Shown: positions 2 to 59,400, numbered from the stretch's first letter. The stretch: DNA of 64,000 nt from an uncultured Muribaculaceae bacterium (GCA_964407685.1 CAYOWI010000001.1:34169-98168), one strand, 5' to 3'. Translations and numbers: made by a program. Notes: a model not told the origin generated them from the sequence alone.

Positions 2-1444
2 AGTAAAAAAGAAATAACAATTGATGATTTACTGGAAAATCTTAAGATCTATAATGAAGAGTCTATATCAAAAGTTCGTAAAGCTTATGATATGGCAAAT
101 ACACTTCATGCTGGTCAATTAAGACAAAGTGGTGAGGACTATATAATTCATCCGTTAAATGTGGCTTACATTCTATCAGGATTGAGGGCAGATTCTGATA
201 CTATATGTGCAGGGTTATTACATGATACTTTAGAAGATACAAACATCACTAAAGAAGAAATTGCAGAAAATTTTAATAGTGATGTAGCTAATTTAGTAGA
301 TGGAGTAACTAAAATAAGTAAGATGAATTTTTCATCTAAGCAAGATCAAAATCTTGCTAATACTAGAAAAATAATAACTGGTATAACAACTGATGTAAGA
401 ATAATATTAATTAAACTTGCTGATAGATTACATAACATGAGAACATTACAGTTTAAAAGTGAATTTAAACAAAAAGAAAATGCATTAGAAACGTTAGATA
501 TATTTGTTCCAATGGCTTATTATATAGGAGCATATAGAATAAAGCAGGAATTAGAAGATTTATCATTAAGATATTTAAAATCTGATATGTATAAAAAGAT
601 AAGTGAGAAAAAGTTAAGGATAGAAGAAGAAAGCAATCCTTGCTTAGCAGAAATGTTACAAACAATAAAAAATATGCTTAATGATGAGAATATACCTAAT
701 GAAATAAAGGTAAGAACCAAAAACATATATGGAATATATAAGAAGCTATCTGAGGGTGGAAAAATATCTGATATACATGATTTGTTAGCACTTAAAGTAA
801 TGGTGGATGAAGTAAACAACTGTTATCAAACATTAAGACTTGTCCACAGTAAATATAATCCTGTTAATGGAATGTTTAAAGACTATATTTGTAATCCTAA
901 AACAAATATGTATAGATCACTTCATACTACCGTGTTTGCACCAGATGATAGATTGGTTCAAACGCAAATAAGAACATTTGATATGGATAAAGTGGCATCT
1001 TTTGGATTATCAACCTATTGGGATATTGAAAAGGGTAATGCAAGAGAAGTTATGCAAAAGGATTTAAAAGATAAATATCAGTTTTTTAATTCATTAGTAG
1101 AAATGGATAAAGTTTTTGGAGATAATAAAGAATTTGTATTACAAGTAAAAAATGAGTTATTTGCAGATAAAATATATGTTTATACAACCAAAGGAGAAAT
1201 AATAGAATTACCAAGAGGTGCAACACCAATAGATTTTGCTTATAAAATACATACTGATGTAGGTAATACAATGGTATCAGCTATAGTAAATGATGAGTAT
1301 GTGGATATAGATAAACCACTTAAAAACAAAGATAGGGTGAGAATAATAACCGATGATTTATCATTTGGTCCAAGAGCGGACTGGGAAGATAAAGCAGTTA
1401 CAACATACGCCAAAAGAAGAATAAGGGAGTTTAATAGGAAGTAA
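2..1444 (+). CDS. RelA/SpoT-family (p)ppGpp synthetase/hydrolase, 5'-partial at the window edge, ends ~35 aa after the TGS domain
   Basis: HD hydrolase motif (HDTLEDT), synthetase region (RSLHTTVF), TGS domain (YVYTTKGEIIELPRGATPIDFAYKIHTDVG). The frame is open from position 2, so the gene starts outside the window. No helical linker or ACT/RRM C-terminal half follows. Confidence 0.8.
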   Translation, partial: SKKEITIDDLLENLKIYNEESISKVRKAYDMANTLHAGQLRQSGEDYIIHPLNVAYILSGLRADSDTICAGLLHDTLEDTNITKEEIAENFNSDVANLVDGVTKISKMNFSSKQDQNLANTRKIITGITTDVRIILIKLADRLHNMRTLQFKSEFKQKENALETLDIFVPMAYYIGAYRIKQELEDLSLRYLKSDMYKKISEKKLRIEEESNPCLAEMLQTIKNMLNDENIPNEIKVRTKNIYGIYKKLSEGGKISDIHDLLALKVMVDEVNNCYQTLRLVHSKYNPVNGMFKDYICNPKTNMYRSLHTTVFAPDDRLVQTQIRTFDMDKVASFGLSTYWDIEKGNAREVMQKDLKDKYQFFNSLVEMDKVFGDNKEFVLQVKNELFADKIYVYTTKGEIIELPRGATPIDFAYKIHTDVGNTMVSAIVNDEYVDIDKPLKNKDRVRIITDDLSFGPRADWEDKAVTTYAKRRIREFNRK

Positions 1445-1504
1445 GATGTGAGTTTATAGTGATCTCTTATAAAAAAACTAAATCTAATTAATAAGGAGGC
1501 TAAT

Positions 1505-1561
1505 ATGAGAAAATTAATGAGAAAATTCAATAGAAAATACGATATGTTATGTACAGCATAA
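1505..1561 (+). CDS. 18-aa small ORF (MRKLMRKFNRKYDMLCTA): candidate leader peptide or short precursor peptide
   Basis: ATG preceded by AAGGAGG at 7-nt spacing. Basic peptide ending in Cys-Thr-Ala. Sits immediately upstream of the YcaO/radical SAM operon. Confidence 0.35.
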   Translation: MRKLMRKFNRKYDMLCTA

Positions 1562-1585
1562 TAAATCTTATTTACTTGGATTTTA

Positions 1586-1626
1586 TGTCACAATAGTATA
1601 CTGTTTTTTAATATACTATTGTGACA
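1586..1626. promoter_or_regulatory. Perfect 15-bp inverted repeat TGTCACAATAGTATA-N11-TATACTATTGTGACA (operator or attenuator hairpin) in front of the operon
   Basis: Seen directly in the sequence between the small ORF and the GGGAGG ribosome-binding site of the 1648 gene. No T-run immediately follows the stem. Confidence 0.6.
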
Positions 1627-1647
1627 ATAATTAGGGAGGCTTAATAG

Positions 1648-3261
1648 ATGGGAAATATAAAAGGTAAAATATTACCAGAAGAAATGAAAAAAGATATAGA
1701 TGATATTTTAGAAAAGCAATTATTTAATGCAAATAGGTATTATGCAGAATCAAATTTTAATATTAATAATTTAATGCAAAAAGAATTAATTGAAAACCCA
1801 GTTATATTTTATAAGAGATTAGTAGAACGTTGGAATTGGCATAATTTTTATTATGAAAACTTGCTTGAACCTGCATATCAATCTATTATTAGAGATAATG
1901 TTAAGGAATTATCAATAAGTGAAATTGATAATTTAATCAAAATATATGAAACATCATGTTTGGTGGATGAAGCAACATTGGTGATGTCAGGATCTATTAA
2001 AAAACATTTAAATTACTATTTGGATAAAATATCTATTGAGGATGAAAATATATCCTACGACGATGCTAAAAATATGCTAATAACACCACCGATAGAAACT
2101 TATTTTGCCAGATATCAAATTGACCATTTATATTATATATATTTGTTAAAAAAGAAGGATGAAAATGTCTTGAAATTTAAAGATTATTTGAAAAATAAAT
2201 ATCATGCATCTGATGAAATTATTTTTCAAAATAGGTTTAGAAAGAAATTTCAAAATTATATGAATATACCAGAAAAAGATTTGTTAAATGAAATAAAATC
2301 ATATAAAATATCCGATTCATATAAAGTACAACATTTTTACTTTACACTTGAACACCCTGAGAGGGCTGCTATCAGAGATATTTTAATATATGATAATTTA
2401 TATGAAAAATTAATTGCTTCCAATCTGATTGGAATATCAGGATTTTTGCTAAGAAGTAAAATTTTAGAATATTTAAACGATAGTAAAATTTTACCAAATA
2501 AAGGGTATATTTATGAATATAGTAATGAGGTTGTTATAAAGTGTTTAAAACAGCTTAAATTAGAAAGGAAAAAATATATGGAAAAAGATGTTAAACCTTA
2601 TAAGCAAAAAGGGGATACATGTGCTATTGCTTGTATGATGATGGTTTTAGAATATTATAAATTGATGGAAAAGGCCAACTGGTATGATGAAAAAAGGTAT
2701 TATAAAAAATTTGGTTCTAAATTCATGCCAGGTACACCATTTTCAGCTATAGCTTATTATTTTTCAAAGAGTGGATTGGATACTACAATTTATCATTCAG
2801 ATGAAAACAGTTTCAATAATGATAAAGGTGCTTTAAGTGAAACGATTTTTAATCTAGCAATGGAAGAATATACCGATTATTTAAAACTTGCAAAGTTAAA
2901 GGGAACAAATATAATTTGTGGTAGTGATATTAACAGTGATATATTGCGAAAAAATTTAGAAAATGGAAATTTAGTTATAATTGCTGGAGAATTATCAGGT
3001 GGATATCATGCGATATTATTGTGTGGATATGATAATGATGAATTTATTGTTTGTGATCCTTTGTTTAAACAAAAACAAAGAAGAACTATTGAGGAAATTA
3101 ATAGTTTTATGAATACTAGTATTGGAAAATGGTTCATATCAGTGAGTGATGTAAAAGAAAAAAAACTTGATTTGGTTAATAGTTTAGGAGATTATAACAA
3201 TAAATCAACTGAATATTTAAATAATACTCACGAAAAGGGAGTAAACTATGTCAAAAAATGA
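1648..3261 (+). CDS. Protein with a C-terminal C39-like papain-fold Cys peptidase domain; ~320-aa N-terminal region of unknown function
   Basis: KQKGDTCAIACMMMVLEY matches the Q-x4-DCG-AC catalytic Cys motif of bacteriocin-processing C39 peptidases. A downstream His (GGYHAILLCGYD) is consistent. GGGAGG ribosome-binding site. Confidence 0.55.
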   Translation: MGNIKGKILPEEMKKDIDDILEKQLFNANRYYAESNFNINNLMQKELIENPVIFYKRLVERWNWHNFYYENLLEPAYQSIIRDNVKELSISEIDNLIKIYETSCLVDEATLVMSGSIKKHLNYYLDKISIEDENISYDDAKNMLITPPIETYFARYQIDHLYYIYLLKKKDENVLKFKDYLKNKYHASDEIIFQNRFRKKFQNYMNIPEKDLLNEIKSYKISDSYKVQHFYFTLEHPERAAIRDILIYDNLYEKLIASNLIGISGFLLRSKILEYLNDSKILPNKGYIYEYSNEVVIKCLKQLKLERKKYMEKDVKPYKQKGDTCAIACMMMVLEYYKLMEKANWYDEKRYYKKFGSKFMPGTPFSAIAYYFSKSGLDTTIYHSDENSFNNDKGALSETIFNLAMEEYTDYLKLAKLKGTNIICGSDINSDILRKNLENGNLVIIAGELSGGYHAILLCGYDNDEFIVCDPLFKQKQRRTIEEINSFMNTSIGKWFISVSDVKEKKLDLVNSLGDYNNKSTEYLNNTHEKGVNYVKK

Positions 3262-3565
3262 TTATTTATTTTATAGAAATTATATAAAATATAGAAAAAT
3301 CTCTAAAGAAAAAATATTGATTACAAGAACAAATAATTCATATTTAATTGGTCCAATTATAAATAATAAATTTGATGAGGAATCATTTTATAGGCGATTA
3401 ACATCTAATAGTATTTATTCACGAAGATATTATAAAAAAATGTTTAAATTAACTGCAAATAGTCTAATAAAAAAATATATGGATTATTTAAATAGTAATG
3501 AGGTATTAGAAGTATTTAAAAATGGTGACACAAAAATACACAAAATTATAAAAGTTCCAAAATAA
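3248..3565 (+). CDS. Small basic Tyr/Arg-rich hypothetical protein (105 aa)
   Basis: ORF overlaps the upstream stop by 14 nt (translational coupling). No recognisable domain. Confidence 0.4.
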   Translation: MSKNDYLFYRNYIKYRKISKEKILITRTNNSYLIGPIINNKFDEESFYRRLTSNSIYSRRYYKKMFKLTANSLIKKYMDYLNSNEVLEVFKNGDTKIHKIIKVPK

Positions 3566-3625
3566 TAATTAAAAATAGTTTTATTAAATGGTATTTTTAC
3601 GTGTAAACGAAGGGAACAAAATTTT

Positions 3626-4900
3626 ATGAAAAATAAATTGATTTTAGATAGAGATGAAATAATTAATATATTAGGTGATAAGTATGCAAGTTTATCTGAT
3701 ATATTTAGCGATAAATTTGGTATTGTAAATGCTATGTTAGAAAGACATGAACTGGATAAGTATAATCTTTATATGTATCAATGTTTGAGTGCTAATGTTA
3801 TGGAACTATTTGATTTAACTAGGGAAGTTTCAAGTGGTGGACTTGGAGTTCATGAGGATAAAAAAATCGCAATGATAAGCTGTTTAGCAGAAGCATTAGA
3901 AAGATATTGCATGTCTTTTATTCCTAGAGGCGATTTAATTACTTGTAGAAAAAGTGATTTGGATAAAAAATATGTTTTTCCGTCTTTTTTTACTTATAAT
4001 AAGGACCAATATTCTCAAAATAAAAAATTTTTGGATCCTAATAATGATATTATTGAATGGACGAAAATAGTTAGTCTAAATAATAAAAAAGAATTCAAAT
4101 ATTGGCCAGCAAGTTTAATATATTTGCCATATGAAATAAACTCTGTTGTAGCAGAAACTACATCTACTGGTATGGCAGCAGGCTTTGATATAAATGAATG
4201 TGTTGAAAGTGGATTAATGGAATTAATTGAAAGAGATAGTTTAATGATTAATTTTATGCAAAGGCTAAATCCCCCGGAAATTAATTTAGATACAATTGGC
4301 GGTAGAAATAAAGAACTTATTTCAAAGATAAAAAAAGAATATAATATAAAAATATATCAATTATATTCTGATATAGATGTACCAATTTATCTTTCTATAA
4401 TTTATAAAGAAAATAATAAAGATACACATTATGGTATTGGAGCTTGTGCAAATTTTGATTCCGATTACGCAATTAATAAGTCTTTAAAAGAATGCTTGTT
4501 TACATATTTTTATTCTTTGAATATATTGGATGCGAAGGTTGAAAATCCTAATGATATTAAAGCTTTGTATGAACATTTTTTATATTATCAAGGGAATAAT
4601 TTTAAGGATTTATTATTTGATAGTAAAATTATTAAATATGAAAGAAAAAAAACTTCGTTAAAAAAGGTGCTTGAAGATTTGAAATCTAAAAATATTGATG
4701 TATTTTATAAAGAATTAACAACAAGTGATATTAAAGCGACAAAAATAAAGGTGTTGAAGGTAATTGCTCCAGGGCTTATAGATATGCATAAAAGCCATAC
4801 ATTACCACGTTTAGGAGCTGAGAGATATTGGAGTGTTCCTAGAAAATTAAATTTAAATTATTTTAAAAAATTATTTGATAAACCGCATCCTTTTCCATAA
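3626..4900 (+). CDS. YcaO-domain protein, azoline-forming (cyclodehydratase) type
   Basis: SSGGLGVHEDKKIAMISCLAEALERYCMSF matches the YcaO ATP-binding/Ser-Gly and ExxER signature. The protein ends ...KPHPFP, the PxPxP C-terminal motif typical of azoline-forming YcaOs. Confidence 0.85.
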   Translation: MKNKLILDRDEIINILGDKYASLSDIFSDKFGIVNAMLERHELDKYNLYMYQCLSANVMELFDLTREVSSGGLGVHEDKKIAMISCLAEALERYCMSFIPRGDLITCRKSDLDKKYVFPSFFTYNKDQYSQNKKFLDPNNDIIEWTKIVSLNNKKEFKYWPASLIYLPYEINSVVAETTSTGMAAGFDINECVESGLMELIERDSLMINFMQRLNPPEINLDTIGGRNKELISKIKKEYNIKIYQLYSDIDVPIYLSIIYKENNKDTHYGIGACANFDSDYAINKSLKECLFTYFYSLNILDAKVENPNDIKALYEHFLYYQGNNFKDLLFDSKIIKYERKKTSLKKVLEDLKSKNIDVFYKELTTSDIKATKIKVLKVIAPGLIDMHKSHTLPRLGAERYWSVPRKLNLNYFKKLFDKPHPFP

Positions 4901-4921
4901 CTATTTGTGAGGTATTTAAAA

Positions 4922-5887
4922 ATGAAAAATAAAAAATTAGTAAATCTATTTGTTGAATTATTAAATATTATTGATAGAAGTCAAATAGATAAAATTAAAT
5001 TAGAAATTGATTTAAAAGATGATAATATTTATTCAATACTTGATAAAATTTGTTTACATTTTAATACATTATATAATTCTGGCTCGATAACTGTAGGGAA
5101 ATACAACATGATATTAAATGTTATTAATAAATATTATGATGAGCGGGATGATTATATTTATAATAGGATAGATTGGATTAATGAAGCATATCTAAATAAT
5201 CCCAAGATTACTTTAGAGAATCATCATCAGCAATTATTGTCATATTTTCAAAAAATAAATAATATTTTGGATAAATCTGGAATTGATTATTTTCATGCAA
5301 GTGGATTTATGGGTTATATATTATCAGGCAAAGAATTAGAAAGATATCATCATGATATTGATTTGTATATAAATGAAAGGTGTTTAAATAATTTAATTGA
5401 TATTTTTTTAAAAGAAGATTTTAATGTTATTCACACCCATGAAAAATGTAGAGAAAATTTATTTAGACATGGCTTTAAAATAGAAAGCAATAGTGTGGAT
5501 ATTCCTATATGGTTATCTTTTTATGAACTTCTTTCAGATGGTGCAATATACGTTAAAGAATACTATGAAGACAAAGACAAAAATTATATTACAAAAAGAA
5601 ATTATAATACATCATTATGTACATTATTGAGTTTGACTGAGGGTAATTATAATGGTACAAATTTTAAATCTATGAGTTTAGAGGCACTTTATTGTAGTAA
5701 AAATGGTAATCGAAAAAAAGATATTTATGATTGTAATGTTATAAAAGAATTAATAGATATAAATAAAGTTGAGACACTAAAACAAGAATTGATATCAGAG
5801 TGGGAAATACTAAATTATATACCAATTTCAATTATAGACGGAATTGATAAAATCGATTGCAGAAAGGAGTTGAAGTACTATAAATAA
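4922..5887 (+). CDS. Nucleotidyltransferase-fold protein (Lnu/LinB-like, Pol-beta superfamily)
   Basis: YFHASGFMGYILSGKELERYHHDIDLYI fits the hG[GS]-x(9-13)-DhD nucleotidyltransferase motif, as in lincosamide nucleotidyltransferases. GTGAGG ribosome-binding site 9 nt upstream of the ATG at 4922. Confidence 0.5.
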   Translation: MKNKKLVNLFVELLNIIDRSQIDKIKLEIDLKDDNIYSILDKICLHFNTLYNSGSITVGKYNMILNVINKYYDERDDYIYNRIDWINEAYLNNPKITLENHHQQLLSYFQKINNILDKSGIDYFHASGFMGYILSGKELERYHHDIDLYINERCLNNLIDIFLKEDFNVIHTHEKCRENLFRHGFKIESNSVDIPIWLSFYELLSDGAIYVKEYYEDKDKNYITKRNYNTSLCTLLSLTEGNYNGTNFKSMSLEALYCSKNGNRKKDIYDCNVIKELIDINKVETLKQELISEWEILNYIPISIIDGIDKIDCRKELKYYK

Positions 5888-5933
5888 ATTACCAAAAAAT
5901 GAATATAGAATTTCAATAACCTCATCATGCAAT

Positions 5934-6755
5934 ATGAAATGCACGTATTGTCATAATGAAGGTAATAAAAGGATTAGCAAATTAAGCATAGATGACATTA
6001 GATGTATTGTTGAAAATTCAAAAGGATTAAATCTAACTAATATGAGATTAACGGGCGGAGAACCACTAATACATCCTGATATTTATAAAATTTGTAAAAT
6101 GCTTTCAGAAGAATATAATCTTAAAGTAGGTATTAATACTAATTGTATTGAAATCGATAAAATTATTTACATGATAAAAAAGGGCTGGATTGATAGAGTA
6201 GTTGTAGGTTTAGACTATTTTGATGGTGTCGTATCTAAACAATCATCAGTAGGAAAAAGTTCAAAGGAAATTTTATCTAATATATTAAAAATAAAAAGAT
6301 TAGGTTGCAATGTTTCAATTTCAACTGTATATAATAATGATTATGATAATATATTTAAATTAGTTGATTGGTGTGTTAATAATAAAATAAGAATTAAAAT
6401 TATAGAATTAATAAAAAATGAAATACATAAAAAATCTGATTTAAATTATATAAAAATGAGAGATTCAATCATTAAAGATTATAAATTTAGGGTTAAGATT
6501 GATAAATTGGAAGAATATAATTGTTTTATAGAGAATTTCAATGTAGTATCTTTTTTTCCATCATTATGTAGATTAAGAAGATGTGATATATGTAAGAAAG
6601 TACATCTTAGAATTACAAGTGAAGGTAATATAAAGCAATGCATTCATTATGGAAAAAATGATAAAAGTGTAATAGGAAAAGATAGTAGAGTAAATATATT
6701 AGAAGAAATAAATCATGAGGTTGATTATCATTATGAGGTTAAAAATGAAGTATAA
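5934..6755 (+). CDS. Radical SAM enzyme with C-terminal Cys-rich auxiliary (SPASM/twitch or MoaA-like) region; start codon uncertain
   Basis: CNMKCTYC is a CxxxCxxC motif, GGEPL is an SAM-binding motif, and the C-terminus reads CRLRRCDICKKVHLRITSEGNIKQC. The first Cys of the cluster lies upstream of the first ATG (see findings). Confidence 0.8.
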   Translation: MKCTYCHNEGNKRISKLSIDDIRCIVENSKGLNLTNMRLTGGEPLIHPDIYKICKMLSEEYNLKVGINTNCIEIDKIIYMIKKGWIDRVVVGLDYFDGVVSKQSSVGKSSKEILSNILKIKRLGCNVSISTVYNNDYDNIFKLVDWCVNNKIRIKIIELIKNEIHKKSDLNYIKMRDSIIKDYKFRVKIDKLEEYNCFIENFNVVSFFPSLCRLRRCDICKKVHLRITSEGNIKQCIHYGKNDKSVIGKDSRVNILEEINHEVDYHYEVKNEV

Positions 6756-7104
6756 AATATTTTGTCATGGTTTTTTAAGAAATAAAAATAGAATTTTATA
6801 TTTAAAAAGAGGAAAAGATAAAATTTATCCATATAAATGGGATTTACCAGGAGGATTTTGTGAATCGAATGAGACGTTCCAAAATTGTATTGTGAGAGAG
6901 TTTAAGGAAGAAACTAATCTAGATATATCTGTTATAGATTTGATTGATTTAAAATGCCAAATTTATAATGATGAAATTATAATTGTTCTTTTATTTGATG
7001 TGAAGCTAGAATCCAAAAGAAATATTAATTTAAATTTTGAACATATAGATTATGAATATTCAGATTGTTTAAAAGGTAAAGACATTATATGGTATTTAAA
7101 ATAA
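6745..7104 (+). CDS. Nudix hydrolase
   Basis: Nudix box GGFCESNETFQNCIVREFKEETNL (GX5EX7REUXEEXGU). ATG at 6745 with a GAGG ribosome-binding site. 4-nt overlap with the radical SAM stop. Confidence 0.75.
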   Translation: MKYKIFCHGFLRNKNRILYLKRGKDKIYPYKWDLPGGFCESNETFQNCIVREFKEETNLDISVIDLIDLKCQIYNDEIIIVLLFDVKLESKRNINLNFEHIDYEYSDCLKGKDIIWYLK

Positions 7105-7120
7105 TTAGAGGAGGTATAAT

Positions 7121-7765
7121 TTGATTAATTATCAATTTAGTGGTATTAATCCTGAAAAGGGTTTTACAAAAAAGCAAGCTGATTGCTTAAAAAAAGATAT
7201 CAAAGACAATTCAAATATAGTTTTTATCGCTAGTATATTTAGTGATTACAAGAAGAATGATGAGTTATTTAAAAATTATATAGAATATTTTGAAAACAAC
7301 AATATTAAATTTAGAAAATCAAGTATTATTGATGATAGAATTTCTATTACTTTAGCCCATGAATTAATTAATGATGCTGATATAGTATTTTTACTTGGTG
7401 GAAATCCGGAAATGCAAATGAAATCAATTAATAAATATGATTTAAAGAAATATATAAAAAAAGTAAACATAGTAATAGGTGTAAGTGCCGGTTCCATGAA
7501 TCAGTCTAAAAGAGTTATGTATAAAGATGATTTTGAAAATTTTAAGATGAAGGATTATGAGGGATTAGGATTAGTGAAAATAAATATTTTTCCGCATGTA
7601 GATTTAAATAATAGTTCTATTATGAATGAGGTGACTGAAATAAGTAAATACATGGAGCTTATTTTATTACCTAATGATTCGTTTATAAGGGTATATAATA
7701 ACAATATAAAATTCTTTGGGAATTATTATTTAATCAAAAATAAAAATTTAAAAACAAATGTTTGA
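7121..7765 (+). CDS. Peptidase S51 family (dipeptidase E / cyanophycinase-like) protein
   Basis: GGNPEMQ and GVSAGSM (nucleophile Ser) motifs. TTG start with a GAGGAGG ribosome-binding site. Confidence 0.65.
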   Translation: MINYQFSGINPEKGFTKKQADCLKKDIKDNSNIVFIASIFSDYKKNDELFKNYIEYFENNNIKFRKSSIIDDRISITLAHELINDADIVFLLGGNPEMQMKSINKYDLKKYIKKVNIVIGVSAGSMNQSKRVMYKDDFENFKMKDYEGLGLVKINIFPHVDLNNSSIMNEVTEISKYMELILLPNDSFIRVYNNNIKFFGNYYLIKNKNLKTNV

Positions 7766-8047
7766 CAAAAAGAATAAAATATATTAGAATTGGTTTATAT
7801 TTTTAAATTGCTGATTTGGAGAAGTAAATATTAAAGAAACTTATAGAAAGTAACTGGCAGATGGAAAGTTATAGTGGATTAATATTGAATGGACCAATGA
7901 GAGTTTTTCTGAAATTATATTATAAAGAGTAGGTAAAATCGGAATTTCTATCCGTTATCAAATGAACATATATGATGGTATATGATTTTAATCTATTTTT
8001 AGGTGGCACAAGACTCTTGTCCTATTTTGGGTGGGCAGAGTCTTTTT
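7762..8047 (+). promoter_or_regulatory. Sigma-A promoter (TTGACA-17-TAGAAT) plus T-box riboswitch leader with Trp specifier, controlling trpS
   Basis: Specifier-like UGGA in the stem I region. T-box-like AGGTGGCACAAG. Terminator hairpin GACTCT...AGAGTC followed by TTTTT at 8012-8047. Confidence 0.7.
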
Positions 8048-8136: not shown

Positions 8137-9138
8137 ATGAGTAAAATGAAAACAATGATTACAGGAGTTAGACCAACAGGTATTATAACTCTAGCAAATT
8201 ATATTGGGGGAATTAAAAAATTTGTCCAACAACAAAGGGATTATAATTCATTAATTTTTATAGCGGATATTCATGGCCTTACTACTTATATTAATCCGGA
8301 TGAAATACAAAATAATATCCTTGATATTACTGCCCTTTATTTAGCCTGTGGTATAGATTTATCTCACACCATTATTTTTCAACAAAGCGATGTTTTAGAA
8401 CATTGTAATTTAGGTTTTTTGATGGCATTTCAATGTGGTGTTGGTGAATTATCTAGAATGACCCAATATAAGTCAAAAAAGTCAGAACTGTCTAAAGCGA
8501 ATAAAGATATGGGATTATTCATATATCCAACATTAATGGCAGCGGATATTTTATTATATGATGCATCGGTTGTTCCGGTTGGCGTAGATCAAAGACAACA
8601 CATAGAAAAAACAAGAGATTTAGGTGAAAGATTTAATAAAGTTTATGGTAAAACATTTGTACTTCCAGAGTATCAAATTCCTAAAATAGGAGCTAAAATA
8701 AAGAATCTACAGAATCCTCAAATAAAGATGAGTAAATCTGCCCCGAAAGATGATAAGGGTACGATATTCATTTTAGATGATGTTGAAATAACAAAAAAGA
8801 AAATAATGATAGCAGTAACGGATAATGAAGGAAAGATTTATTTTGATGAAAAAAATAAGCCTGGCATATCAAATCTTTTATCTATTATAGCTGTTATAGA
8901 TAATTTGAGTATTGAAGAAGTTTCCTTAAAATATAAGGATTACACTTATAAGGAATTTAAAATAGAAGTTGCTGATAAAGTTGCAAAATTTATTTTGGAT
9001 ATTCAAGATAAATTTTATAGTTTCAGAAATGATGAAAGATATTTAAAAAAAGTATTAAATGATGGAGCAGCTAAAGCAAAAAAACTTGCAAGTAAAAAGA
9101 TGAACCAAGTTAAAAAGTTAGTTGGAATAAAAACATAA
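8137..9138 (+). CDS. trpS: Tryptophan--tRNA ligase
   Basis: Class I aaRS with KMSKS motif (KMSKSAPK) and TrpRS-like N-terminus. T-box with UGG specifier upstream. Confidence 0.9.
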   Translation: MSKMKTMITGVRPTGIITLANYIGGIKKFVQQQRDYNSLIFIADIHGLTTYINPDEIQNNILDITALYLACGIDLSHTIIFQQSDVLEHCNLGFLMAFQCGVGELSRMTQYKSKKSELSKANKDMGLFIYPTLMAADILLYDASVVPVGVDQRQHIEKTRDLGERFNKVYGKTFVLPEYQIPKIGAKIKNLQNPQIKMSKSAPKDDKGTIFILDDVEITKKKIMIAVTDNEGKIYFDEKNKPGISNLLSIIAVIDNLSIEEVSLKYKDYTYKEFKIEVADKVAKFILDIQDKFYSFRNDERYLKKVLNDGAAKAKKLASKKMNQVKKLVGIKT

Positions 9139-9279: not shown

Positions 9280-9317
9280 GCACGGAGTCACTTTTATAGT
9301 GATAACGTGCTTTTTTG
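9280..9317 (+). terminator. Intrinsic terminator/attenuator hairpin inside the leader of the GNAT gene
   Basis: GCACGGAGTCACT-TTTAT-AGTGATAACGTGC followed by TTTTTTG. Lies downstream of a TTGACA promoter-like element and upstream of the GNAT ribosome-binding site. Confidence 0.5.
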
Positions 9318-9348
9318 TTTATCACTATTAGATAAGGAGGTGAATTTT

Positions 9349-9915
9349 ATGATACATAAGGGAACTAAGACTTTAGAAACAGCTAGGTTATTGCTTAGAA
9401 GATTTAAATTAGAAGATGCACAAAAAATGTACGATAATTGGGCTAGTAATCCAAACGTTTCTAAATATGTTACGTGGGATGCTCATAAAGATGTTAATGA
9501 AACCAAAGCTTTGTTAGAAGAGTGGGTTAAAAGATATGATAGTTTAGAGACTTATAAATGGGTTGCTGAACTAAAAGATACAAAAGAGATAATTGGTTCA
9601 ATAGACGTTGTATCAAAAACGTTTTTACCATATGGTGTCTGTGAGATAGGTTACTGTTATGGTGAGGACTTTTGGGGTAAAGGTTATGGTACAGAATGTT
9701 TAAAGGCGGTAATTAGATACTTATTTGAAGAATGTGATGCTGATGTTATATGCGCAGGACATTTATCACAAAATCCTGGTAGTGGTAAAGTAATGATAAA
9801 GAGTGGTTTAACTTATGAAGGAACTCAAAGAGGCAGGTTTATTGATTCTGATGGAATAAGAAATGATTTGCTAACATATTCTTTGACTAAAGAAGAGTAT
9901 AAAAAAATGAAATAA
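9349..9915 (+). CDS. GNAT family N-acetyltransferase (RimL/RimJ-like)
   Basis: RLLLRRF...ED N-terminal region and GNAT core (IGYCYGEDFWGKGYGTE). AAGGAGG ribosome-binding site. Confidence 0.75.
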   Translation: MIHKGTKTLETARLLLRRFKLEDAQKMYDNWASNPNVSKYVTWDAHKDVNETKALLEEWVKRYDSLETYKWVAELKDTKEIIGSIDVVSKTFLPYGVCEIGYCYGEDFWGKGYGTECLKAVIRYLFEECDADVICAGHLSQNPGSGKVMIKSGLTYEGTQRGRFIDSDGIRNDLLTYSLTKEEYKKMK

Positions 9916-9925
9916 GGTAATTATT

Positions 9926-10651
9926 ATGAAAATATTTTTAACTAGTGATTTATTAAATTATAAAAAAGTAAACAATAAACATATTCCTACTAAGATAAAC
10001 AATGATAATGGTATAGTAGATCAATTAAAAGAAAACTTAAAAGGCAATAGAGATATAGTATTTTTTGCCTCGTCTAAAAGTGATTACTCTAAAACCGATA
10101 ATTACGCTAATATCTTGTTTGAATCTTTGAAATTATCTGGTATTTCGTTTTATAATTACTATATTATAGATGATAGGTTTAAAGGTAGTATAAAAAGTAT
10201 AATAGATAAATGTGATATGGTATTTATTGCGGGTGGAGATACTTTAGAAGAAATGAAATTTTTTAATGATATAGAATTGAAAGATTTATTAAAAGGTTAC
10301 AATGGAGTTATTATGGGAATAAGTGCAGGAGCAATCAATTTGGCATATGATGTTTATAATAGTCCAGAATTTAAGGAAGATTTAGAAAAAGAATCAAAAT
10401 GGAAGGGTTTATGTTTAACTCATATTAATATAGAACCACACTTTGTGTATTCTGATAAAAGTTTTACTCAAAATGAAAAATTGCAAAGAAAAGAAGTCTT
10501 AAAGGAATCTTATAATAGGGTATTATATGGCCTTTTAGATGGAAGCCATATAACTGATATTGATGGAAGAGTGAATTTTTATGGTACTTGTTATAAAATA
10601 TCAAATGGAAAAATCACTTTGATATGTAAAAACAATAAAAGAAGTATATAG
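9926..10651 (+). CDS. Peptidase S51 family protein (paralogue of the protein at 7121-7765)
   Basis: IAGGDTLEEM and GISAGAINLA motifs, with the same architecture as 7121-7765. Confidence 0.6.
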   Translation: MKIFLTSDLLNYKKVNNKHIPTKINNDNGIVDQLKENLKGNRDIVFFASSKSDYSKTDNYANILFESLKLSGISFYNYYIIDDRFKGSIKSIIDKCDMVFIAGGDTLEEMKFFNDIELKDLLKGYNGVIMGISAGAINLAYDVYNSPEFKEDLEKESKWKGLCLTHINIEPHFVYSDKSFTQNEKLQRKEVLKESYNRVLYGLLDGSHITDIDGRVNFYGTCYKISNGKITLICKNNKRSI

Positions 10652-11224: not shown

Positions 11225-13288
11225 ATGAGAAAGAAAAAAAATAGTAAGTGGTTAGTTGGTCTTTTTATAACACTACTTGTTGTAGTGCTAATTATTCTCA
11301 TAAACTTTAGTAAGGGTTCAAAAGAAAATACCAAACTAAATTTAACCGAAAAAAAATGGATTGAGAATAATAAAAAAGATGTAATAAATGTTTCGATTGC
11401 AAATAACATACCGGGTTTTAGTAGTGAAGGAGAAGGGGTATTTTTTGACTATATTAAAAAATTAGAAGAAAAAACTGACTTATCTTTTAACTTGATTTCT
11501 TACGATGCTGATGAAGATACAACTACAAATGATTTATATTTTGAAGTTGTAAAAGGAGATTTAGTAAATAAATTATCTGATGATGATATGGTGTTTTTTA
11601 AAGACTATTATGTATTAGTAAGCAAAGATGAAGATAAAATAACTGATCCTGGTAACATAATAAATAAAAAAATAGGTGTATTAAGTAGTGATTTAGCACT
11701 TGTTAGTTATTTTATACCATCATCTAACGGAATATCATATACTTCGTATCAGAATTCTTCTGAAATAAAAAATGCGCTTACGAGTTCTAGTGTTGATTAT
11801 ATTGCCATTCCAAAAACTAGGTATTCATCATATATAATATCTAATTCATATCACGTTGTATACAACATGACTGAGTTAAAGGAAGCGTATGTATTAAAGA
11901 CTTCTAAAGATACAAATAAGAATTTATCCAGCATTGTTAGAAAAAACTTTATAGAGTATAAAAATGATACGTTACAGAACGTATATAATGAAACTTTAAT
12001 GGGATTATTGTTAGAGGAAAATAATATATCTGAAAAATCAAAAGCGGACTTTTTAAGTAAAAAATACGTTTTTGGATATTTAGAGAACGAACCATATACT
12101 AACACTATTAATAATAAACTAATTGGTCTTGATAGTACGTACATCAATTCGTTTAGTTCGTTAACTGGGGCATCCTTTACCATCAAAAAATATCGTTCTG
12201 TTAAAGATTTAGCTAACGATTTTAACAATGGTAAGGTTGATGTTGCACCTAATTATTATAATTATTCCAATTTAAAGGGAAATTATGCAAAAACTATTTC
12301 TCCATATGATGAAGAGTACGTCGTTTTAGTTTATAATACGAAAACTAATGTTGTTGTTAATTCAGTAAGGTCATTAAAAGATAAAAACGTCGTAACAACT
12401 AATAGTACTTTGGCTAGATTTTTGGAAAAAGAAGGAAAAGCTAAAGTAAAAGCATATGATAGAGTTAGTCAGTTAATTAAAAATATAAATAAAGATAGTT
12501 TAATTATATTAGACAAAAACGTTTATGAAATGTATAAAGATAGTGAGTTATCTAAGTACCGTGTAATTTATAACGATAAAGAAAACCTTGAATATGGTTA
12601 TATAATAAGAGATGTAAACGAAAATAGTACATTTAAAAAATTATTCATAACTTATATGGAAATGTCTAATTATAAACAGTTATATAATGTTGCATGGAAA
12701 GAGTTTAAGGTTGATTCTAAAGAAATAAGTTATACTTATTTATACATAATTGGAGCTTTAATACTAGGATTTATAGTATGGCTTTTTGCAAAGAAGAAAA
12801 TAAAGATTAAAAAGAAAGCAAAAAGAGAAGAAACAATTAGATATATAGATCCACTTACTTCTCTTAAAAATCGTAATTATTTAAATAAGAACTTTAAAAG
12901 ATGGGAAAATAATTCTATTTATCCTCAAGCAATAATAGTTATTAATTTAAATAATTTAAGACACGTAAATGATGTATATGGTCATGAAGAAGGAGATAAA
13001 TTAATTAGGTTAGCGGCTAATGTTTTAATAAAAAATCAGTTGGATCAAAGTGATATTATAAGAACCGATGGTAATGAGTATTTAATTTACATGGTTGGGT
13101 ATGAGAAAAATAAGGTTGTTACTTACATGAGAAAGTTATATAAAGAATTAGGGGAACTTCCTTATGGTTATGGAGCAACGCTTGGTTATAGTATGATAGA
13201 AGATGATATTAAAACGATTGATGATGCTATAAATGAAGCTGTTTTAGAAATAAGAGCAAATAAAGAAATGAATAATAAGGGTAAGTAG
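11225..13288 (+). CDS. Membrane sensor with periplasmic solute-binding-like region and C-terminal degenerate GGDEF domain
   Basis: N-terminal TM, ~480-aa extracytoplasmic region, second TM, then a GGDEF-like domain (RYIDPLTSLKNRNYL...). The signature is RTDGNEY instead of R[YF]GG[DE]EF. Confidence 0.7.
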   Translation: MRKKKNSKWLVGLFITLLVVVLIILINFSKGSKENTKLNLTEKKWIENNKKDVINVSIANNIPGFSSEGEGVFFDYIKKLEEKTDLSFNLISYDADEDTTTNDLYFEVVKGDLVNKLSDDDMVFFKDYYVLVSKDEDKITDPGNIINKKIGVLSSDLALVSYFIPSSNGISYTSYQNSSEIKNALTSSSVDYIAIPKTRYSSYIISNSYHVVYNMTELKEAYVLKTSKDTNKNLSSIVRKNFIEYKNDTLQNVYNETLMGLLLEENNISEKSKADFLSKKYVFGYLENEPYTNTINNKLIGLDSTYINSFSSLTGASFTIKKYRSVKDLANDFNNGKVDVAPNYYNYSNLKGNYAKTISPYDEEYVVLVYNTKTNVVVNSVRSLKDKNVVTTNSTLARFLEKEGKAKVKAYDRVSQLIKNINKDSLIILDKNVYEMYKDSELSKYRVIYNDKENLEYGYIIRDVNENSTFKKLFITYMEMSNYKQLYNVAWKEFKVDSKEISYTYLYIIGALILGFIVWLFAKKKIKIKKKAKREETIRYIDPLTSLKNRNYLNKNFKRWENNSIYPQAIIVINLNNLRHVNDVYGHEEGDKLIRLAANVLIKNQLDQSDIIRTDGNEYLIYMVGYEKNKVVTYMRKLYKELGELPYGYGATLGYSMIEDDIKTIDDAINEAVLEIRANKEMNNKGK

Positions 13289-13295
13289 GATAGTT

Positions 13296-14147
13296 ATGAA
13301 AAAAAGTAAAGAAAAAATAAAGGGTAGGATAACTGAAAACATAAGGTTAATGAGTACTCCGTTAATGTCTATACTGCCAGGACAAATATCCTTTTTCGTA
13401 ATATTATCTATTATTCCACTAGCTAGTATACTAGCTATGTTAATATCAAAGTTATCATTTAACTTTGATGCGGTAACTGATTTTGTTTCTCATTATTTGC
13501 CTAGTGGTGTAACAAACATGATACTACTTATTTTTGAACAACAAAAAGTTACAACGTTTGATTTATTCTTTATAATAATGGCGTTTTACTTGGCATCAAA
13601 GGCAACTCATTCGATAATTATTGCTTCAACCCAGATTTATAACGGAGAGCAAAAAGATTTTATTAGAACAAGAATTAAAGCCATTTTAATGCTTATAATA
13701 TTAGTTTTATTAGTAATAACGTTAGTTGGAGTTTTAACTATTGGTGGTAGGTTAGTAGATTATTTAAGCGTTGTAAACGGAAATATTCATCCAATTATTA
13801 ACTGGATATACTTGGTTTTAAAATGGCCTTTTATGTTTTTTATGGTTTTCTTTACAATAAAGGTAATTTATACTATTGCGCCAAATGTTAATATTCCTAG
13901 TAGTAGTGTTAATAAAGGAGCTTTATTAACGACGGTGGTATGGGTAGTATCTACTTATGGTTTTTCATTTTACGTAACAAATTTAGCAAACTATACTAAG
14001 TTTTATGGTAACCTTTCAAATCTTATTATCCTTATGATTTGGATTTACTGGTTATGTTATATATTTGTTTTTGGAATGACCATCAATGAATACAAACTTA
14101 ATAATAAGGAAAGCTTTTCTTTGAAAAAAGAAATAAATGGTGATTAA
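13296..14147 (+). CDS. YihY/BrkB (virulence factor BrkB / former RNase BN) family membrane protein
   Basis: Six-TM topology and family-typical N-terminus (LPGQISFFVILSIIPL). Confidence 0.7.
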   Translation: MKKSKEKIKGRITENIRLMSTPLMSILPGQISFFVILSIIPLASILAMLISKLSFNFDAVTDFVSHYLPSGVTNMILLIFEQQKVTTFDLFFIIMAFYLASKATHSIIIASTQIYNGEQKDFIRTRIKAILMLIILVLLVITLVGVLTIGGRLVDYLSVVNGNIHPIINWIYLVLKWPFMFFMVFFTIKVIYTIAPNVNIPSSSVNKGALLTTVVWVVSTYGFSFYVTNLANYTKFYGNLSNLIILMIWIYWLCYIFVFGMTINEYKLNNKESFSLKKEINGD

Positions 14148-15018
14148 TATGGGAAAAAAATTTGTTTTAACAGTTATAACTTTTTTGACATTAGTAATTT
14201 TTATGCCGATTAGCGTAAAAGCAGAAAATAGAGTTTATTTTGAAAAAGAGGAAATTAATATAGCGCCAGGCGAAACAAAAAAGATTAATATAATAGTAGA
14301 TTCTGATGAGGACTTTACTAAAGTTAATTTTAGTTTGATTACGACTTCTAATAATGTTAATTTTAAATCAGTTGACTTTGTGGATTCCTTCGTAAGAAAT
14401 AGTACGTCGTCAACTGGAAGTAATTATGAACTACAATCAAATGAACCTCAAAAATCAGGTACGGTAATAGGTAGCGTTACAATCGGTGCAAAAGATACAT
14501 CACAATTAGGTGAAGAAGGTTATATAAGGTTAATTAAAACGGCTATAACCTCTAGCAAATTAATTAATTTATCAAATGCACAGTTAAAGTTTACCGTTAG
14601 TAAAGATAAATCTAGTAATAATTATTTATCTAATTTATCCTCTAATATTACGGAGATTGATTTTAAAAAAGACGTTTTAGACTATAATGTTACCGTTGAT
14701 GAAAACATCGATAAATTCGATTTGATGGCGGTTGCAGAAGATTTATCCGCTAGTGTTAACATTTCAGATCAAACTTTGGATAAGGATGTTAATTTAATAA
14801 AGGTTACGGTTTTATCAGAAACGGGAAAGGAAAGAATATATAAAGTTACGGTAAATAAAAAAGGATCAGAAAAAAAGGATCCTAAAAAAGTTACAAAAAC
14901 TACAGAAGTTAAAAATAATAGTAAGGAAAGACCTGGTAAATCATCATGGATTATATTATTGGTATTTTTAAGTAGTGTTATAATATTAGATATTTTATAC
15001 ATAAAAAAGAAGCGATAA
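14137..15018 (+). CDS. Cell-surface protein: signal peptide, possible cohesin-like N-domain, cadherin-like beta-sandwich domain, C-terminal TM anchor
   Basis: Signal peptide. LSNLSSNITEIDFKKDVLDYNVTV...YKVTVNKK matches the cadherin-like beta-sandwich pattern. C-terminal TM plus KKKR. Paralogous in architecture to 52496-54016. Confidence 0.5.
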   Translation: MVINMGKKFVLTVITFLTLVIFMPISVKAENRVYFEKEEINIAPGETKKINIIVDSDEDFTKVNFSLITTSNNVNFKSVDFVDSFVRNSTSSTGSNYELQSNEPQKSGTVIGSVTIGAKDTSQLGEEGYIRLIKTAITSSKLINLSNAQLKFTVSKDKSSNNYLSNLSSNITEIDFKKDVLDYNVTVDENIDKFDLMAVAEDLSASVNISDQTLDKDVNLIKVTVLSETGKERIYKVTVNKKGSEKKDPKKVTKTTEVKNNSKERPGKSSWIILLVFLSSVIILDILYIKKKR

Positions 15019-58764: not shown

Positions 58765-58793
58765 TTGACTTTTTGAATAAAATATGGTATATT
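58765..58793 (+). promoter_or_regulatory. Near-consensus sigma-A promoter TTGACT-17-TATATT driving the ncRNA
   Basis: Seen in sequence. Predicted transcription start near 58800. Confidence 0.5.
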
Positions 58794-58799
58794 GTTTAG

Positions 58800-59400
58800 C
58801 CGTGGAGCAGTATTCTAGTTTGAATTGCACTATGAGGACGGGCCTAAAAATCCGTTAAAGAGCATACCTGTGAAACGTCTTGTGCTTGCTTCTTTCGCCC
58901 AGATTGGGGTGAGTGCTGGATATGAGTTTGCTGGGCTAGCTGTAATGGCATACAGATTATCAAGACCCATCAATACGCGGAGACTTAAGTGCGTGCAAGG
59001 CGTAGGACTTTGTACGGCTTGAGATTAAACCTACTATGTGGCTTGCGCTATGAGTAGTGTAGCTTGCCTTGAGTGAGGGTATTGGGAAGAAGGATCAGGT
59101 CTTTTCATCTAGGCATAGATTAAGGACTATTGCCTTCTGAAATTTCCCTTGCAAAAAAGAGCTAGTAGTGATTTGTTCATTTGAAGAAATTTCCTAGACT
59201 GTGACTTTCATGGAATTGCAGTGCGTACTAAGTGGTAATCAAGTAATGCTTGTCGCAAGGAAGCATGCCTTTTCTTAAATGGGAACGGCCGGATGGTAAC
59301 AGAAGGTGAAAAGGTGGGAAATCCAACTTGACCTAAGACGCAAAGTTTGTCATGAAAGATTCCACGCTATTTTAATTGTACTTATGTACAATCTTTTTTT
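58800..59400 (+). ncRNA. ~600-nt structured non-coding RNA candidate (OLE-like or ROOL-like large ornate RNA; class not confirmed)
   Basis: Local GC ~43% against ~27% background. No credible ORF. Own promoter and intrinsic terminator. Many locally self-complementary GC-rich segments. Followed by a 4-TM ~22 kDa protein gene. Confidence 0.55.

Follow-up and report, generated by a model that had tools for sequence, protein, structure and literature searches.

A probable YcaO-dependent peptide-modification cassette, apparently undescribed, headed by an 18-codon gene in uncultured gut bacteria

Our analysis of a 64,000-nucleotide stretch of DNA from an uncultured Muribaculaceae bacterium (GCA_964407685.1 CAYOWI010000001.1:34169-98168), referred to here as the window, uncovered a gene cassette of uncultured gut bacteria that is real, probably devoted to peptide modification and apparently undescribed. 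The cassette comprises an 18-codon open reading frame (ORF), a hairpin, a protein with a C39-type peptidase domain, a 105-aa protein and a YcaO enzyme, and it is usually extended by a nucleotidyltransferase (NTase) and further accessory genes. On the basis of gene content, protein folds, conservation and the way in which the peptide varies, we consider it probable that the locus carries out a YcaO-dependent modification of the kind found in RiPPs (peptides made by the ribosome and modified after translation), and that it is a new variant with respect to its partner proteins, precursor and accessory genes. A preliminary description, made from the DNA of the window, had proposed a new peptide- or nucleotide-modifying pathway; the peptide-modifying half of this proposal is favoured here, whereas the nucleotide-modifying half is poorly supported. 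That description had also been unable to assign the locus to any named class. In agreement with this, no account of the cassette was found in the literature searched, including by term within a 2015 survey of thiazole/oxazole-modified microcins (TOMMs) and of a 2021 study of standalone YcaO enzymes.

Related loci were gathered from a scan of species-representative genomes (35 loci), from a metagenome scan seeded with the NTase (19 more) and, for the others, from contig look-ups, and deduplication left 50 distinct versions of the family. Upstream features were counted in the 41 loci with at least 2.3 kb of upstream sequence and downstream features in the 40 loci with at least 2.3 kb of downstream sequence. 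More than 120 relatives of the YcaO were found at 60-88% identity, and in about 50 related loci the 18-codon ORF, the hairpin, the C39 protein, the 105-aa protein and the YcaO recur as a common core. The C39 protein is present in 41/41 loci, which bears out the co-occurrence with YcaO on which the preliminary description had set its proposal. The 105-aa protein was detected by tblastn in 40 of these 41 loci and by clustering in the remaining one. A comparison of gene families across the 50 loci revealed no conserved dehydrogenase, TfuA, exporter or immunity gene with the cassette.

Most of the hosts are RF39-type gut Bacilli that have not been cultured ('Mycoplasma sp. CAG:472', 'CAG:776'), and the others include several Clostridia and one Candidatus Paceibacterota. 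RF39-like Bacilli, which are uncultured but common in the gut communities of humans and animals, have very small genomes; among RF39-like genomes of about 1.2-1.5 Mb, the position of the cassette beside relA is stable. The occurrence of the full core in a genome of the candidate phyla radiation (locus L034) indicates that the cassette has been transferred between phyla. Two YcaOs from Bacteroidota (L037 and L040, from Flavobacteriaceae and Roseivirgaceae) share 38-44% identity, are found without the C39 and 105-aa partners and are followed by a gene for an APH-type kinase. These two belong to another family, and their loci suggest a different YcaO system that is probably uncharacterised too.

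The 18-codon ORF had been treated as a translated upstream feature only. It was found to be the best-conserved element of the cassette, and sequence comparison makes its product, MRKLMRKFNRKYDMLCTA in the window, the probable substrate. A GGAGG-type site lies ahead of the ORF in essentially all related loci, and the consensus of the peptide is M[RK]KL[MLF][RK]KF[NED][RK]K[YFLM]D[ML][LMI]CT[A]. Among 23 distinct DNA versions of the ORF, 1531 differences fall on third codon positions, compared with 641 and 561 on positions 1 and 2, respectively. This concentration on third positions indicates that the ORF is selected as a protein (purifying selection). In the 40 loci that carry the peptide gene, position 16 is Cys throughout except for a Ser in L030, position 17 is Thr throughout except for a Cys in L043, and position 18 is Ala, Gly, Val or Ser. 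The limitation of the adjacent positions 16 and 17 to Cys, Ser and Thr is as expected of the substrate of a cyclodehydratase. L038 is the sole locus lacking the peptide gene; its relA is joined to the middle of the C39 gene, at about 8250-8420, through either a genuine loss of the cassette's 5' part or a chimeric assembly.

With regard to the hairpin, the segment that contains it (1555-1650) folds with a minimum free energy of -24.1 kcal/mol (z = -3.8). A hairpin occupies the same place in nearly all loci, with stems of unrelated sequence; in some loci it starts right at the stop codon of the peptide gene, and in the Clostridia loci a U-rich tail stands behind it. No U-tract follows the hairpin in the window. 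The preservation of the structure across stems of different sequence points to an RNA element and not to a protein-binding operator. The short ORF and the palindrome reported upstream of the operon are both present, but the operator reading of the palindrome is rejected. Judging from its placement and fold, the hairpin probably either acts as an attenuator (partial terminator) or stabilises the peptide transcript. Elements of these kinds are common in RiPP operons.

An ORF at the 5' end of an operon with a hairpin behind it, placed in some loci at the stop codon itself, could also be a regulatory leader peptide that controls the operon through translation-coupled attenuation, the YcaO then modifying a protein encoded elsewhere, as other YcaO enzymes do with McrA and with a ribosomal protein. 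Such a role would suit the unusual conservation of the whole peptide, including its basic N-terminal part, and YcaO enzymes that act on proteins are documented (PMC5589413, PMC13063428). Nevertheless, we regard this explanation as improbable and poorly supported, given that the last three residues vary only within a set of cyclisable residues plus one small residue, that a leader-type peptidase is strictly co-conserved, and that the YcaO is SagD/heterocyclase-like, with a PxPxP motif, while TfuA is absent. It is also hard to square a purely regulatory leader ORF with L034, where the peptide MKFIKKFDKKYDLLCTA is encoded at 9567-9620, between the C39 and 105-aa genes, and not at the head of the operon. 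The peptide has been kept with the cassette across phyla and despite a changed gene order.

The YcaO matches PF02624 over almost the entire profile and, as the preliminary description had stated, combines the ATP-binding signature with a C-terminal PxPxP motif. The latter takes the form PHPFP at the extreme C-terminus (residues 420-424), which is invariant in 23 homologs; the EALER and ELIERD motifs are likewise invariant. Among solved structures, the cyanobactin heterocyclases MusD, TruD and LynD come closest.

The C39-like peptidase that had been predicted upstream was recovered as a match to Peptidase_C39_2 (E 2e-8). Its peptidase domain has a papain fold with conserved catalytic residues (Gln, Cys, His and Asp), and the helical domain that precedes it has no solved relative. 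Pfam gave no match to an ABC or transmembrane domain in this protein. The 105-aa protein, which the preliminary description did not discuss, has no relatives in Pfam, NCBIfam, PADLOC or the PDB, and its family counts only 29 representatives among 1.84 billion proteins, all of them standalone and about 105-113 aa long. G35, P36 and R50 are invariant, and overall conservation equals that of the YcaO. This protein may be a partner of the YcaO or a leader-binding subunit.

Downstream of the core, the loci differ in content. The NTase is encoded in 32 of the 40 loci, together with ThiE in 23, with a radical S-adenosylmethionine (SAM) enzyme in seven and alone in two; eight loci hold the core only, four carry a Nudix gene and three an S51 peptidase gene. 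The seven genes of the window, which had been presented as one set, do not hold together as a unit, since the radical SAM (7/40), Nudix (4/40) and S51 (3/40) genes are sporadic and most relatives carry ThiE in place of the radical SAM enzyme. ThiE and the radical SAM enzyme are never found without the NTase and never together. The Lnu-like identity of the NTase, initially a guess from the DNA, was borne out by structure comparison; sequence-profile searches of the PDB returned nothing for this protein. In the 19 metagenome loci, all 18 NTase homologs with flanking sequence adjoin a YcaO core, and the NTase and radical SAM genes of L031 and L032 are inserted between the C39 and 105-aa genes. 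The occurrence of the NTase only beside YcaO, and of both genes inside the core, shows that they belong to the cassette.

The same genes invite an explanation as a nucleotide-modifying or anti-phage system, in which a MoaA/viperin-like radical SAM enzyme, the NTase and the Nudix hydrolase would synthesise or degrade a modified nucleotide and the YcaO genes would adjoin them without any relation. PADLOC gave weak matches of the radical SAM enzyme to pVip (E 3e-12) and of the Nudix hydrolase to PDC-S07 (E 4e-17), the radical SAM enzyme is closest to the nucleotide-using MoaA, and in L036 a CMP-kinase-like protein comes after the NTase. However, the pVip scores reflect no more than generic radical SAM similarity, the radical SAM and Nudix genes are present in few loci, the NTase invariably accompanies the YcaO core and is, with the radical SAM gene, embedded in it in L031 and L032, and the chromosomal position is syntenic and stable rather than that of a defence island. 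We find this explanation very improbable and poorly supported, and a defence system was rejected because the PADLOC matches are generic only.

The NTase gene is overlapped, in most relatives, by a following gene for a canonical ThiE (thiamine-phosphate synthase). The ThiE proteins of three loci scored 188-212 bits against TIGR00693 (cutoff 145), and the match to PDB entry 1xi3 has an E value of 5e-51; no ThiE is encoded within the 64-kb window. The NTase-ThiE pair accompanies the core in three unrelated contexts, namely the RF39 genomes and two Clostridia contexts, and is therefore not a chance neighbour. Other genes that adjoin the cassette elsewhere encode an S66 (LdcA/MccF-type) peptidase, an alpha/beta hydrolase, an HD-domain protein and a CMP-kinase/AAA_28 protein.

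The cassette is a poor fit to an ordinary bacteriocin system, given its near-invariant peptide, its stable position in tiny genomes, the lack of export and immunity genes and the presence of a true ThiE. The same chemistry might instead serve to produce an intracellular azoline small molecule from the C-terminal Cys-Thr-Ala, which we consider possible but unlikely. Such a product would be a cofactor-like or thiamine-related metabolite or antimetabolite, made in the manner of PQQ or mycofactocin, and its link to thiamine or nucleotide metabolism would be made by the NTase together with ThiE (or the MoaA-like enzyme); another possibility is that ThiE serves as a resistant copy of the target. An intracellular role is in keeping with the near-invariance of the peptide over Bacilli, Clostridia and one Paceibacterota, with the stable site beside relA in RF39-like genomes and with the lack of a conserved exporter or immunity gene. 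A ThiE that scores above its curated cutoff, and whose gene shares an overlap with that of the NTase and travels along with the cassette, points in the same direction, as do the cofactor- or nucleotide-type accessories (MoaA-like radical SAM enzyme, Nudix hydrolase, HD-domain protein and CMP-kinase/AAA_28 protein) and the existence elsewhere of a natural fusion of a Nudix and a ThiE-like domain (NF006530). A thiamine-related product is nevertheless disfavoured by the eight loci that hold the core alone and the seven that lack ThiE. Moreover, no thiamine pyrophosphate (TPP) riboswitch was detected in the seven ThiE-bearing loci checked, and control of these cassettes by such a riboswitch was discarded. 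The Cys16-to-Ser variant of L030 indicates that sulfur is not essential, and, by our own reasoning on the ring atoms, a thiazoline formed from X-Cys lacks the substitution pattern of the thiamine thiazole; on these two grounds, the peptide was rejected as a source of that thiazole.

In the window, the partner of the NTase is a MoaA-like radical SAM enzyme. Its best NCBIfam matches are to MoaA (95.3 and 93.7 bits, below the cutoffs of 325 and 284), and its profile matches MoaA in the PDB (1tv7, E 7e-20) with the C-terminal CxxC...C aligned; on this alignment, the auxiliary Cys triad is of the MoaA type. The preliminary description had called the enzyme a SPASM/twitch radical SAM protein, of which the PF04055 domain and the auxiliary Cys cluster stand, but not the SPASM assignment: no SPASM model (PF13186 / TIGR04085) was among the Pfam matches, and the SPASM enzymes of NCBIfam match the radical SAM core only.

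The start of this gene is uncertain. The first ATG, at 5934, lies within the CX3CX2C motif, and the first Cys is lost if translation begins there; CNMKCTYC, which follows the family-typical LPKNEYRISI, is read only from upstream of this ATG in the same frame. The codon at 5871-5873 is TGG (Trp) in the nearest relative (L006) but TGA in the window, and the canonical upstream start is lost as a result. It follows that the gene starts at a rare codon, for example the ATA at 5880, which is a possible start 10 nt after GGAG, or that it depends on read-through, or that it is impaired or decaying. Genetic code 4 was rejected as an explanation of the in-frame TGA, as TGA ends 4 of 48 long ORFs and the long ORFs cover 84% of the window; the genetic code of the window is the standard bacterial one.

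The Nudix hydrolase and the S51 peptidase that had been named at the end of the operon were both found as Pfam matches (E 9e-15 and E 3e-15, respectively). L014 encodes a single 346-aa protein (13126-14163) that is a Nudix-S51 fusion and thereby links the two to each other. The S51 peptidase is about 30% identical to a second paralog in the window, which means that S51 genes are not unique to the cassette in this genome. Given this paralog and their presence in only three or four loci, the Nudix and S51 genes have the weakest claim to membership in the pathway. The best NCBIfam match of the window Nudix is NF006530, in which a MutT-type Nudix domain is fused with the ThiE-like domain, and the ThiE proteins of L003, L009 and L033 match the other half of this model. 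These profile matches hint at related roles for the Nudix and ThiE modules.

For the YcaO-dependent modification that we favour, we infer the chemistry and its sequence of steps, what the 105-aa protein, the helical domain and the accessory genes do, and what the product is and does, as follows. The strongly initiated 18-codon gene would supply MRKLMRKFNRKYDMLCTA as the substrate in excess, and the hairpin would probably raise the ratio of peptide message to enzyme message. The SagD-like YcaO would use ATP to activate the backbone amides ahead of residues 16 and 17, and the side chains of Cys16 and Thr17 would close on the activated amides to give a C-terminal thiazoline and methyloxazoline. 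Recognition of the substrate would probably involve the 105-aa protein and/or the helical domain and proceed via the conserved basic amphipathic N-terminal part of the peptide, after which the C39-type papain domain would cut off the leader. The LnuA-fold NTase, as a cassette-specific accessory, would most likely O-nucleotidylate the product or an intermediate. Its partner module would be a canonical ThiE or, in this window, the MoaA-like radical SAM enzyme, sometimes with the Nudix-S51 hydrolase in addition.

Several observations weigh against this reading. The peptide contains no Gly-Gly, Gly-Ala or Gly-Ser and thus no double-glycine site of the kind cut by C39 peptidases, and its N-terminal 'leader' surpasses the enzymes in conservation, unlike typical leaders. 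The Cys at position 17 in L043 argues against an obligatory nucleotidylation of the Thr hydroxyl group, and a canonical ThiE has no obvious role in peptide tailoring. TIGR03604 (SagD family) is by far the best model for the YcaO, but the score of 193.5 bits is below its cutoff of 219.25. The absence of the usual partners was correctly noted in the preliminary description: no Pfam or NCBIfam match to an E1-like C protein, an Ocin-ThiF partner or a RiPP recognition element (RRE) was obtained for the cassette proteins, and none to TfuA or an FMN dehydrogenase among the proteins of the window. The 105-aa motif GP...[C/D]xx[C/S]...R aligns with residues 186-218 of TruD, the Zn-site segment of its E1-like domain, and the Paceibacterota homolog carries CxxC at this TruD-like segment; the hhalign E value of 0.16 is not significant, and an exhaustive phmmer search with the 105-aa protein returned standalone orphans only, with no link to a longer protein. 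The cassette is also devoid of an exporter, an immunity gene and a dehydrogenase. Finally, the radical SAM step may be impaired in this window, to judge from the loss of the canonical start.

The features of the locus are collected in Table 1. The window is AT-rich (about 25% GC), and the seven ORFs of the + strand between 1648 and 7765 (radical SAM ORF counted from its first ATG, 5934-6755) are as tightly packed as had been described, with neighbouring ORFs overlapping or at most 60 nt apart. A search for terminator-like sites on the + strand revealed none within the cluster. The cluster sits between relA/spoT and a T-box/trpS unit (trpS, 8137-9138), and the T-box shows that the next transcription unit is trpS. 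The RelA/SpoT homolog of the window is short (450 aa, compared with 478-501 aa in relatives), and its gene is directly 5' of the cassette in nearly all RF39-type loci.

Table 1 Features of the cassette, its flanks and the related Paceibacterota locus (positions in the window unless a locus is named)
Feature	Position	Strand	Remarks
RelA/SpoT homolog	92-1444	+	HD, RelA_SpoT and TGS domains only
Ribosome-binding site of the precursor peptide gene, AAGGAGG	1493-1499	+	read directly in the sequence
Precursor peptide gene, MRKLMRKFNRKYDMLCTA	1505-1561	+	18 codons and stop; present in 40/41 loci with upstream context
Hairpin	1586-1626	+	15-bp stem; between the peptide gene and the enzyme genes
537-aa protein	1648-3261	+	all-helical N-terminal domain (aa 1-309) and C39-type papain-fold peptidase (aa about 310-525)
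105-aa orphan protein	3248-3565	+	always between peptidase and YcaO
YcaO, SagD-like, 424 aa	3626-4900	+	PF02624, E 2.4e-43, profile positions 6-324 of 325
LnuA/ANT(2'')-fold NTase	4907-5887	+	N-terminal helical extension; fold and catalytic acidic motif present
MoaA-like radical SAM enzyme	5880-6755	+	PF04055; start codon uncertain, first ATG 5934
MutT-type Nudix hydrolase	6715-7104	+	PF00293, E 9e-15; 4/40 loci; likely start ATG 6745
S51 (PepE-like) serine peptidase	7121-7765	+	last operon gene; PF03575, E 3e-15; 3/40 loci
Promoter-like TTGACA-17-TAGAAT	7762-7790		ahead of the T-box leader
T-box leader	7802-8027	+	upstream of trpS; 76 bits, E 1e-15, below the Rfam gathering score of 93
GNAT acetyltransferase (PF13302), then second S51 peptidase paralog	9307-10651	+	paralog itself at 9926-10651
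Full core in Candidatus Paceibacterota metagenome-assembled genome	L034 7854-11278		C39 protein, peptide, 105-aa protein (with CxxC), YcaO, then alpha/beta hydrolase

Far from the cassette, the window also contains a full-length OLE (ornate large extremophilic) RNA at 58786-59381 on the + strand, which, with 374 bits (E 2.5e-106), exceeds the gathering score of 50. A family-4 glycosyltransferase is encoded upstream of this RNA, and downstream are a 204-aa ORF without a Pfam match and then a weakly matching CNNM-like membrane protein.

A cassette of 5-6 kb that is held at one chromosomal site across RF39-like Bacilli, and is also found in Clostridia and one Paceibacterota, is likely to matter biologically. 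For RiPP enzymology, the locus offers a YcaO that apparently works without a recognisable E1-like or RRE partner, a new helical domain of 310 residues on a soluble leader-type peptidase and an orphan 105-aa subunit. To our knowledge, the precursor is among the shortest and most conserved, and we know of no RiPP tailoring logic that explains the tie of ThiE or a MoaA-like radical SAM enzyme to a cassette-specific LnuA-fold NTase. This tie could point to new chemistry that joins ribosomal peptides with vitamin or nucleotide metabolism. If the product were intracellular, genome-reduced gut bacteria and candidate-phyla bacteria would be keeping a ribosomally derived cofactor or a thiamine-related (anti)metabolite. 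As the system is small, with four to six genes, direct reconstitution is feasible.

The cassette departs from every described YcaO subclass in its partner proteins, precursor and accessory genes. With the synthetases of linear azol(in)e-containing peptides (LAPs) and TOMMs (SagBCD, McbBCD), it shares a D-type YcaO with a C-terminal PxPxP and a small ribosomal precursor that has Cys, Ser or Thr at the modified positions and is encoded at the head of the operon. In contrast to these systems, it has no detectable E1-like C protein, FMN dehydrogenase, exporter or immunity gene, its precursor is an almost invariant 18-aa peptide with only two modifiable residues, its peptidase is a soluble C39-type enzyme with a new helical domain, and its YcaO is below the SagD-family cutoff. 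The cyanobactin heterocyclases (TruD, LynD, MusD) provide the closest solved YcaO domains and yield azolines that are not necessarily oxidised. Their YcaO domain is fused to an RRE and an E1-like domain, whereas the YcaO of the cassette is a standalone protein of 424 aa encoded after the orphan 105-aa protein. With regard to the peptidase, the best structural matches to residues about 310-525 are the double-glycine leader peptidases of the PCAT/AMS type (LahT, PCAT1, ComA), whose catalytic residues are kept; the cassette enzyme differs in that it is not fused to an ABC transporter, faces a substrate without Gly-Gly and bears the extra helical domain of 310 residues.

In the microcin C operon (mccA-F), an extremely short precursor gene is likewise followed by a hairpin and accompanied by a nucleotide-transferring enzyme, and relatives of the cassette adjoin MccF (S66) or S51-type peptidases. 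The cassette differs from this operon in having YcaO as its core enzyme, no MccB-type E1 adenylyltransferase (no ThiF/E1 match) and no exporter, and its peptide ends in Ala, Gly, Val or Ser and not in the C-terminal Asn of microcin C. The PQQ and mycofactocin pathways resemble it in their short conserved precursor with functional C-terminal residues, dedicated peptidase, accessory protein of ~100 aa, absence of an exporter and vertical inheritance; the core enzyme of the cassette is a YcaO rather than a radical SAM enzyme, and no PqqD-type RRE was detected by sequence. Compared with the O-nucleotidyltransferases LnuA and ANT(2'')-Ia, to which its sequence similarity is marginal, the NTase of the cassette has about 120 extra helical residues at the N-terminus, is embedded in a biosynthetic cassette and is coupled to ThiE or a radical SAM enzyme.

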